DNA of 15,465 nucleotides from contig CAJWHW010000034.1 in the NCBI GenBank assembly GCA_913040915.1, positions 1 through 15,465 on the forward strand. Reading direction: 5' to 3'. This document shows, in pieces, positions 3,001 through 6,000 of this stretch (the first letter of the stretch is position 1; each line of letters begins with the position of its first letter). The position numbers were made by a program. This stretch comes from an uncultured Fidelibacterota bacterium. GTDB lineage: Bacteria > Fidelibacterota > Marinisomatia > Marinisomatales > UBA1611.

Positions 3001-6000
3001 TGGCAAGTTTATACAGGTATTACTACATATTATCAAGGATGGTAGGGATATAAAAAATGCAAAATAAAAAAGTCTGGAGTTGGGCATTTTATGATTGGGC
3101 AAATTCTGCTTTTATTACAACTGTTATGGCGGGATTTTTCCCTATTTTTTTTGAAAAATATTGGTCCAATCCAGATAATGTAATCCGTAGTACATACCAA
3201 TTAGGATGGGCTAATTCACTGGCATCCGTTTTTATTGCATTGATTGCACCATTTTTAGGGGCAATAGCTGATAGAGGCTCTGTAAAAAAGAAATTTTTAT
3301 TTTTCTTCGCATTTTTAGGCGTAATAATGACTGGCGGACTATGGATGGTAGATCAGGGGCAATGGGAAATTGCAATTTTTCTATATGTTTTAGCGTCTGT
3401 AGGATTTATGGGCGGTAATATTTTTTACGATTCCCTGCTACCATTTGTAGCATCAAGAGATAAATTGGATTATGTATCTTCTTTGGGATATTCCTTAGGA
3501 TATATCGGTGGCGGTTTATTGTTTCTTGTGAATGTGCTAATGTATCTCAATCCGGAATGGTTTGGTATTGTAGATGCATCAACAGCCATTAAACTTTCCT
3601 TTTTATCTGTTGCAGTCTGGTGGGCAATATTTACAATTCCAATTTTGTTATTTGTCCCAGAACCGGAAGTACAAGATTCAGTTCCATTTATAAAAGCAAT
3701 TACTGCTGGTGGGAAACAATTGAAAGAAACTTTCGATAAAATCAGGGAGATGAGAGTAATTGGGATTTTCCTACTTGCTTACTGGCTTTATATTGATGGT
3801 GTCGATACGATCATTCGTATGGCCGTCAAAATGGGCTCATCTCTTGGGTTTGAAGCTGGAGATTTGATTACCGCTTTACTCATGGTGCAATTTATTGCAT
3901 TCCCTAGTGCATTGGCATATAACAAATTTGCAGAAAAGATTGGTACTAAAAATGCCATTTTTGTAGCAATCGGAGGCTATGCACTAATTACATTTCTAGC
4001 TTATTTCATGACTAGTAGGAATCATTTTTTTATTCTGGCAGCTATGATTGGTTTATTTCAGGGAGGTATTCAGGCATTAAGCAGAAGTCTATATGCACGA
4101 TTAATCCCAAAAAATAAAGAAGCAGAATTTTTTGGATTTTACAATATGCTAGGAAAGTTTGCCTCAGTCGTGGGGCCTTTACTTATGGGCTGGGTTACAT
4201 TGGTTACGGGCAGTGTTCGTTTTGGAATTTTATCTATTTTAATATTATTTATCCTAGGTGCTATCCTTCTCATGAAAGTTGATTTTGAGGAAGGAGAGAG
4301 GCTTGCCAAAGAGTTCAAGTAATTTTTTTTCGAAAAAGATTGATTTAAAAAAGACATGTGATTTAACTTTTGTTTAGCGTTCTGCCCCGTTGATGTGGCG
4401 TGCTCTTCAGGGAAAAGAGTTTTTTCCGAGGGTTTTTCGACGGGGCATTTTCAATTTCAAATGATAGTTAACCAAACTAACGACATTCCATAATATTATT
4501 AAAGACCTTTCACCTTACTCATAATGTCAACTGAAGATAGAAAATTAGCAGCAGTAATATTCACATATATGAATATATAAGGTTCATCCATAAATTGAAT
4601 TCACCTATAATTAGATATTCCCAGCTTGTAATGCCCCAGGATGCAAATGTCCTTGGTACACTTTTTGGTGGTCAGATGGTATCATGGATGGATATTTCTG
4701 CATCTAAGGCCGTGCATCGTTTTTTAAAGGATACAAATGCAGACGCAGCACTAACACGAGCGATTGATGCGATCGAATTCAAAGAACCAGTGCATGTAGG
4801 TAATTGGGTAAATTTTGAAGCTCAGATCATTTCTACAGGGAGATCATCCATACAGATCCAGATAGATGCCTACAAGGAGACAAAAGATCTTGATAAGGTT
4901 TTAGCCTGTACAGCTAAGTTCACTTTTGTTTCAGTAAAAAAACTTCAAGGTGGAACCTTTGAAAAAGTTGATCATAATAAGACGGTATAATAATTATGAT
5001 GGATAATATATTTAAGCCTCATCCTAAAATCTCGGCAAGATCCCATATTCATTCAATGGAACAATATGGAGACCTTTATAAACGCTCAATTAATGATCCC
5101 ATAGAGTTCTGGGAGGAGATTGCTCAAAGGCTTGATTGGTATAAGCCTTGGAATAAGGTTAGAGAGTTTAACTTTATTAATGGGGAAATAGAATGGTTCT
5201 CTGGAGGAGAATTAAATGCATGCTATAATTGTATAGATAGACATATTAGTGAAGGTCATGGTGATGATATTGCTATTATATGGGAGGGGAATGACCCAAA
5301 TCAATCTAGAAAATTTTCATACAATAAGCTTTTGAAAGAAGTATCTCAATTTGCAAATGCTTTAAAAGAACTAGGTATCCAAAAAGGGGATAGGGTTTGC
5401 CTATATATGCAAATGATCCCTGAATTAGCGATTGCTGTTCTGGCGTGTGCACGCATTGGCGCAGTCCATTCGGTTGTTTTTGGAGCTTTCTCAAGTGAAT
5501 CTTTGAGAGACCGTATTAATGATTCAGAATGTAAGATCTTGGTAACACAGGATACTGGTGTTCGAGGAACCAAGCAAAATATTCCAATGAAGTCAAATGC
5601 TGATCAGGCTTTGAATGATACACCTTCTATTGAACATGTTATAGTCGTTCGTAGGACAGGAGAGCCTGTTAAAATGGATACCAAGCGTGATATATGGTGG
5701 CATGAAGCTAAATCGGGGGTCAGTATAAAATGTGCACCAGAAGTTATGGACTCAGAAGATCCTCTTTTTATATTATATACGTCAGGATCAACAGGTAAGC
5801 CTAAAGGTGTATTACATACGACAGGTGGTTATTTGGTTTATGCATCTTTTACTCATGAAATGGTTTTCGATTATAAACCAGGTGATGTTTACTGGTGTAC
5901 TGCTGATTTAGGTTGGATTACTGGTCATTCTTATATTATCTATGGCCCTTTGGCTAATCGAGCTACAACAATTATGTTTGAGGGTGTTCCTAATTATCCT

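Follow-up and report, generated by a model that had tools for sequence, protein, structure and literature searches.

What is known of RNA regulators that resemble the one described here? In the part of the source available to us (PMC8383071), the RsaE RNA of Staphylococcus aureus is described as a trans-encoded, base-pairing sRNA that is independent of Hfq and has an unpaired seed, and the Listeria RNAs SreA and SreB as sRNAs derived from 5' UTRs. Control of lexA at the RNA level also has an antecedent, the S. aureus lexA antisense RNA, which the available part of PMC8745188 presents as cis-encoded read-through from a convergent gene. Mutagenesis cassettes of the lexA-imuB/imuY-imuC(dnaE2) type are reported from P. 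putida and D. deserti (PMC3901139, available part), sRNA binding sites within coding sequences are known (PMC13085923, available part), and the accessible text of PMC9971707 describes a CoA riboswitch class as still missing. Our literature search found no sRNA control of lexA-imuB-dnaE2 type cassettes and no description of the RNA considered here, for which the supplementary motif tables of large RNA-discovery studies, or subscription papers, may hold an entry; the order-wide RNA family is apparently undescribed.

The RNA lies in the window, a 15,465-nucleotide stretch of contig CAJWHW010000034.1 from an uncultured Fidelibacterota (marine Marinimicrobia) bacterium. It is a real hairpin RNA of about 65 bases, at positions 4384-4446 of the plus strand, with stems that covary. 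When 4384-4451 is folded, a single interrupted hairpin of -28.8 kcal/mol results (z -3.4; 1 of 200 shuffles is equally good), which reproduces the sequence, coordinates and fold of the genome-wide survey's note; adding the flanks leaves the hairpin unchanged, and no conserved downstream complement was seen by eye. From the base upward the RNA consists of the helix P1 (4384-4393 with 4437-4446), an internal loop, the G-U-rich helix P2, a CA bulge and the apical hairpin P3. Two-sided changes are found in 8 of 11 P1 pairs, the 3' strand of this helix being placed by the covariation alignment. The internal loop and the 5' strand of P2 together make up the proposed seed, UGUGGCGUGCUCUU, at 4394-4407, which is exactly complementary to a segment of lexA mRNA (G000:C35:7617-7630). 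Among the homologues the CA bulge (4408-4409) is nearly invariant, and P3 (4410-4427) exchanges G-C, A-U and G-U pairs beneath a variable loop. The 3' strand of P2, GAGGGU (4428-4433), belongs to a weak helix rich in G-U pairs, for which the support consists only of one-sided changes from G-U to Watson-Crick. After P1 comes a U-tail (4447-4451), probably a leaky terminator end, with 4 U within its first 8 nt in this genome.

The covarying stem of the earlier account holds up: among 51 homologues and 23 pairs, 96.9% of cells are paired and two-sided change occurs at nine pairs, a level reached by none of 500 shuffles, and a wider alignment of 50 rows, itself fitted to the model, has two-sided change at 13 pairs. 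The G-U pairs of the stems are kept on the plus strand only. Other parts of that account need revision. Its title spoke of a three-way junction, for which there is no support, since the consensus is an unbranched interrupted hairpin with no branch point. The inner loop was called almost invariant, which is correct for the core but not for the U of 'UGGCG', a position where U, C, A and G are all found, and the U-run said to end the RNA is weak at many loci. The absence of an Rfam match was borne out at the site, and a scan of three homologous loci was likewise negative.

How widely is the RNA distributed? The survey's range of three families was too narrow, as the RNA is present in 14 of the 16 families of one Marinimicrobia order; its statement of one copy per genome is confirmed, with zero matches for a reversed-pattern control. 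A DNA search matched the RNA in 38 of 54 family genomes, with two additional matches outside the RNA. Of 401 genomes of the phylum, 85 contain a single match to the exact pattern (control 0), two matches outside the order being due to chance, and a covariance model gave strong matches in 33 of 80 pattern-negative genomes. Homologues outside the order were sought in 80 class- and phylum-level genomes plus 14 more, and none was found; nor was the RNA found in family f13 or in the 0.7-1.1 Mb genomes of family f3. Of 80 GTDB pattern loci with DNA, among the matches listed, 41 score above 50 bits and carry titles naming Marinimicrobia, Neomarinimicrobiota, Fidelibacterota, the FCB group or only 'bacterium'; the remaining 39 are chance matches (at most 24 bits), and three viral pattern matches have the wrong spacing. 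Decayed remnants of the RNA, still ahead of the thioesterase gene discussed below, are seen at L109:1333-1413 and L061:640-710 (genomes G020 and G015).

The RNA appears to be preceded by a sigma-70-like promoter. In the window the -35-like hexamer, TTGACA in several other families, is TTGATT (4340-4345), which the consensus scanner did not list in this genome; the -10-like hexamer is TAACTT (4364-4369), and transcription would start near 4376. The survey had noted TTG-17-TA..T in front of the RNA, and the pattern TTG-N16-18-TA..T does occur no more than 60 nt upstream in 93 of 108 loci, versus a shuffled mean of 9, with a median of 11 nt between the -10-like hexamer and P1. At the other end, a U-tail with at least 6 U in 8 positions is found at 18 of 18 loci without the thioesterase gene versus 36 of 64 with that gene within 60 nt, in related genomes that are not independent and with 7 real loci omitted because they fail a strict filter. 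A tail that is stronger at loci lacking the thioesterase is consistent with an RNA gene from whose leaky end transcription also reaches the gene behind it. RNA libraries of one marine sample (two runs) contain 7% of the words, at contig depths of 2-4; contigs of two relatives start 2 and 12 nt before P1, though contigs cannot show starts, strand or level, and one low-depth contig, weak evidence from one sample, spans both RNA and thioesterase. As far as sequence can say, then, the element would have its own promoter, its own 3' end and a locus apart from its putative target, as expected of a trans-encoded sRNA.

That putative target is lexA. The invariant core of the RNA, GGCGUGCUCUU, is complementary to codons of the LexA linker, the gene lying elsewhere in the genome on a contig (G000:C35) other than the RNA's. 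LexA is identified by TIGR00498 above cut-off, and its gene heads a lexA-imuB-like-dnaE2-like cassette, in which a Y-family-like gene is followed by a DnaE-like gene; we take the latter as DnaE2 from its context, as it falls below every equivalog cut-off. Family-wide, the 11-nt core has about 25 second sites, versus about 12 for a reversed control, and 15 of the 21 sites examined are antisense to the (K/Q)-E-H-A codons of the linker. In this genome the match extends to 14 nt; the 14-mer occurs twice genome-wide, where 0.004 extra copies are expected, and among 3125 seeded windows the lexA site forms the best non-self duplex (-30.2 kcal/mol).

Is the complementarity anything more than a consequence of the protein sequence? 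We compared 96 lexA orthologues across the order. Glu-His-Ala is encoded by GAG CAC GCC in 43 of 46 orthologues from five families, and it ranks first among 64 conserved tripeptides (median 0.20, the next 0.66), while the same nine bases encode only 1 of 31 Glu-His-Ala tripeptides genome-wide. Single-codon bias, when weighted by family, is not unique to the lexA site, so the claim is carried by the tripeptide test and by synonymous resampling, in which pairing is better than resampled in 6 of 11 families. The longest paired run between RNA and lexA is 12-15 nt in 26 of 29 genomes of family f1, 14-22 nt in 7 of 9 of f5, 20, 22 and 14 nt in three genomes of f12, 20 nt in genome G065 and 9-11 nt in f7 and f14; matches of 17-22 nt are reached in three families besides the present one. 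Families that played no part in its discovery have the site as well. Thirteen more orthologues from site-bearing lineages comprise six exact sites (three of them already known from pattern matches), four wobble-compatible, two mismatched and one lost.

A sign of coupled change comes from genus g36, where the lexA bases after the core match the genus's own RNA (UAC type) and not the UGU type of f1 and f5. The cognate duplex energy there is -41.8 kcal/mol, against -31 to -32 kcal/mol, and the co-variation is repeated in three more genomes, the sister genus having the 14-nt core only. Compensatory change of RNA and target is clear in g36 but not in f7, f14 or several f1 genera, and in f7 and f14 a non-cognate RNA pairs better than the cognate one, which leaves a single lineage as the basis for co-variation. 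Inspection by eye of wobble bias among the target substitutions did not discriminate. Once opening costs are counted, net binding comes to -17.8 kcal/mol in this genome; 18 site-bearing genomes range from -11 to -23 kcal/mol and three site-less ones from -2 to -7 kcal/mol. Two-strand minimum-energy folding, a method that cannot model loop-loop pairing, predicts a clearly favourable heterodimer in only 4 of 25 genomes and none in 18, among them the present one.

Of 71 RNA-bearing genomes with this lexA, 54 have the site, as do 10 of 23 genomes in which no RNA was found, but the threshold was set post hoc, the second group includes incomplete genomes and, since kin are not independent, the counts overstate independence. 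Decayed sites are found in the RNA-less genomes G034, G032, G033, G018, G339, G324, G267 and G280, and none of six readable lexA copies is exact in family f13, which lacks the RNA; the RNA-less genomes G044 and G047 retain an exact site. In a quick tree the f13 copies (L318, L321, L333, L382-L384) nest among those of f1, which suggests that the lexA cassette has been transferred. No lexA relatives were found in viral contigs.

We propose that the RNA is a base-pairing sRNA, apparently Hfq-independent, that acts on lexA mRNA, and give this reading a probability of roughly 0.6. It is preferred to a metabolite switch of the thioesterase gene because lexA mRNA contains a conserved site to which the invariant core is complementary. 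An RNA of about 65-75 nt would be made from its own sigma-70 promoter, with a U-tailed end that is often leaky, so that the same promoter would also feed the thioesterase operon. It would act in trans on the mRNA of the lexA - imuB-like - dnaE2-like mutagenesis cassette. The open internal loop would begin pairing at the A/C-rich loop of the conserved lexA linker hairpin; pairing would then extend through the weak, G-U-rich P2, which is displaced, and through upper P1, until the duplex measures 9-14 bp or, depending on the family, as much as 22 bp. Such a duplex would most likely lead to cleavage, destabilisation or refolding inside lexA, and in turn to altered levels of LexA and the error-prone polymerase. 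Sequence analysis shows the fold of the RNA and the hairpin of the mRNA, the promoter pattern, the complementarity, the fixation of synonymous codons and the one co-variation event; from these we infer a free RNA, its pairing in the cell and an effect on lexA mRNA. An Hfq profile (PF17209) gave no match in five genomes, with the control positive.

Does lexA account for the whole of the RNA's conservation? Among the 71 RNA-bearing genomes with this lexA, 17 are without the site (f8, f11, f15, f16, 4 of 5 in f2, g26 and g6); family f4 has only a distant LexA paralogue, genera g20, g21 and g40 yield no close match, and the RNA is intact in all four of these lineages. This invariance of the core where the site or a close lexA orthologue is absent is what would be expected if the element were a stand-alone structured RNA with another main job, binding a protein or several mRNAs, and lexA a lineage-specific partner. 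The near-invariant CA bulge and 3' strand of P2, which the lexA target explains only in part, point the same way, and pairing of that 3' strand is suggestive in f7, f14, f15 and f16 though not in f1 and f2. Against it, no other conserved complementary site, nor a second target shared by those lineages, was found among 20 exact and 56 wobble-tolerant loci, nor is there a candidate partner protein. We consider such a job unlikely, if still worth keeping in mind; that the RNA has other targets or roles besides lexA is probable. Two genomes have a partial complement to the core in a gene that we take from its sequence to be rsmH-like (G000:C9 near 14555; L423), within a protein-constrained motif; this gene is a possible second target.

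The survey had placed the RNA in front of an acyl-CoA thioesterase gene in 94 of 97 loci and had read it either as a riboswitch-like leader or as a stand-alone sRNA; our results favour the sRNA and weaken the thioesterase-acetyl-CoA synthetase riboswitch. In the window the RNA follows an MFS transporter gene (3057-4322, plus strand), syntenic in many families, and on the same strand precedes a hotdog-fold acyl-CoA thioesterase-like gene (4595-4990; Pfam 4HBT, YciA-like but below cut-off), its usual downstream neighbour, and an acetate-CoA ligase gene, AcsA (4996-6933; TIGR02188 above cut-off). Between RNA and thioesterase lies an 18-codon stump (4524-4580, plus strand; MSTEDRKLAAVIF...) resembling the start of an 800-residue gene on contig C49, with a motif that we take to be reminiscent of class III nucleotide cyclases. 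After removal of 21 chance pattern matches and one contig-end locus, 115 genome loci are informative: 95 have the thioesterase gene downstream, 18 lack it and in 2 it is broken. In metagenomes the gene is downstream in 67 of 77 loci. The link is looser than earlier claimed. With this query, no thioesterase orthologue was found in 6 of 7 f2 genomes, all four of f12, both of f10 and genome G230, and no more than a 33-37% paralogue in f14; most genomes without the orthologue keep an intact RNA, and in five families the RNA survives loss of the gene. Conversely, 12 genomes have an assembled MFS-thioesterase junction in which the RNA is gone or decayed, so each has been lost independently of the other. 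In one RNA-less genome, G030 (L117), a tRNA-like gene that by eye resembles selenocysteine tRNA stands ahead of the thioesterase.

Could the RNA still be a cis-acting leader, perhaps a riboswitch that senses CoA, acetyl-CoA or acetate and governs read-through to the thioesterase operon by stabilising P1 as a terminator? Its position between promoter and thioesterase in those 95 loci, at a median spacer of 47 nt (minimum 17), argues for a leader, and in many lineages the thioesterase transcript probably begins with the RNA. Where the upstream genes change, the RNA remains with the downstream block; the promoter outlasts decay of the RNA in G044 and G047; one RNA-library contig, as noted, joins RNA and gene; and the new downstream genes of g36 include one with a 2-oxoacid dehydrogenase acyltransferase domain, which is CoA-linked. 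A riboswitch should always lie 5' of co-oriented, thematically shared genes, yet the RNA-bearing lineages share no one downstream gene and at seven loci the RNA faces a convergent gene. No alternative fold or antiterminator is apparent, though no systematic search for one was made, the tail is stronger where the thioesterase is missing, and the invariant bases are otherwise explained by lexA complementarity and codons. Because the downstream gene varies, because the RNA exists without the thioesterase and at convergent loci, and because of that other explanation for its invariant bases, we find a leader doubtful, and most of the case for a CoA riboswitch here is removed.

The lexA site is itself structured. 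It lies in the loop of an mRNA hairpin of 12-15 bp, the stem being made by the flanking N-G-K-R-A and A-R-L-P-L codons. The alignment comprises 57 of 94 copies, selected because they could be aligned, with f7, f8, f11, f12 and g26 left out; in it 89.6% of the hairpin is paired, 40 cells show two-sided change, and on three of five measures none of 500 shuffles does as well. Synonymous resampling gives far less stable hairpins in f1, f5, f6, f7, f13 and f15, but not in f12; Rfam gave no match to the native hairpin. Among the lexA orthologues (L306-L395) this hairpin is retained even in RNA-less lineages and may therefore have a role of its own, such as an inter-domain translational pause or a processing site. 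Part of the site can pair within its own hairpin. In addition, the last 12 codons of lexA contain a Gly-Val-Leu segment whose codons complement the linker site; a small hairpin comes next, just ahead of the stop and the next start. The RNA may mimic or compete with the Gly-Val-Leu segment.

Could the structure of the mRNA itself be what maintains the site, its match to the RNA being a relic of common origin or a coincidence? In 39 of 43 f1 and f5 copies, 8-9 of 9 positions of the site do pair with the C-terminal codons, the Val codon is GTG in 40 of 57 site-bearing versus 7 of 26 site-less copies, compensatory changes are seen in G020 and G285, and genomes without the RNA retain the hairpin. 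The pairing is mostly at 4-7 of 9 positions in f7, f12 and f14, however, where the site is still exact, its predicted probability is about zero in 11 of 13 genomes, and internal structure can yield neither the matches of 17-22 nt nor the co-variation in g36. We think this origin of the match improbable. We give equally little weight to a dual element: a terminated leader of the acetate/acyl-CoA operon, possibly CoA-gated, that would be released to remodel a lexA landing hairpin, both strands of P2 swapping with the mRNA loop and so tying carbon status to SOS mutagenesis without Hfq.

Other features of the lexA region may be recorded here. About 240 nt upstream of lexA, directly behind the -10 of the cassette, lies a direct repeat, CTTACGAG-N3-CTTACGAG (G000:C35, L472), the only exact copy in this genome, and the repeat is also found upstream of lexA in f2, f5, f6, f7, f8, f14, f15 and f16; it is a candidate LexA operator of direct-repeat type. 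When LexA control of the RNA promoter was considered, the repeat was found near none of 186 RNA locus records. In f1 genomes a conserved ORF of about 50-65 codons ends at the lexA start (L472:4951-5145, minus strand).

That the element is merely a terminator, or a DNA operator between two genes, is scarcely credible, since its GC-rich stem and following U residues come with a promoter directly in front, an inner sequence invariant across 14 families and not palindromic, and G-U pairs retained on the plus strand only. Known RNA classes were also set aside. In the T-box antiterminator bulge, UGGN pairs with tRNA NCCA, and the present RNA likewise has a purine-rich unpaired strand between two helices, with UGGC in this genome; but the first UGGN position may be U, C, A or G, and there is neither a Stem I nor an Rfam match. 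SRP RNA, tmRNA and 6S RNA had no Rfam match at the site. SRP RNA is found elsewhere in this genome. A 6S-like match, below cut-off at 45 bits, lies elsewhere in one of five relatives, the weak 6S candidates being G000:C10:33645-33815 (L031) and one in L282, with 20.5 and 45.3 bits, both below the Rfam cut-off. Four of five relatives have a separate one-piece tmRNA, a gene not found in the present 85%-complete assembly; the window also holds a tRNA-Leu(CAG) gene (14656-14740), divergent from smpB (14865-15314).

What would the proposed pairing mean? The RNA family spans an order of an abundant, mostly uncultured marine lineage, and it comes with a specific predicted target. With synonymous codons fixed in five families, complementarity of up to 22 nt and one co-variation, the predicted pair lends itself to testing in vitro. 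If the proposal is correct, a trans-encoded RNA would act on a lexA and error-prone polymerase cassette, for which our literature search found no precedent, and this would bear on how these bacteria set their mutation rate.

How does such an RNA compare with the known systems? Like sRNAs of the RsaE type it would have its own promoter, a terminator-like end, a loop-presented seed and an apparently Hfq-less host; it differs in its unrelated sequence, in a seed placed in an internal loop that would extend by strand displacement, and in a predicted site deep in coding sequence, within the loop of a covarying mRNA hairpin. With SreA and SreB, as far as the available part of that source describes them, it would share a position at the 5' end of an operon, early termination and a proposed trans action on a regulator's mRNA, but the present RNA persists without the downstream operon and is known from sequence without a ligand-binding fold. 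The S. aureus lexA antisense RNA, in the portion of its source available to us, is similar in that control of lexA at the RNA level is proposed, and dissimilar in that our RNA is encoded on another contig and has 9-22 nt of complementarity. The target operon itself, finally, shares the layout of the P. putida and D. deserti cassettes, with LexA, Y-family-like and DnaE-like genes.
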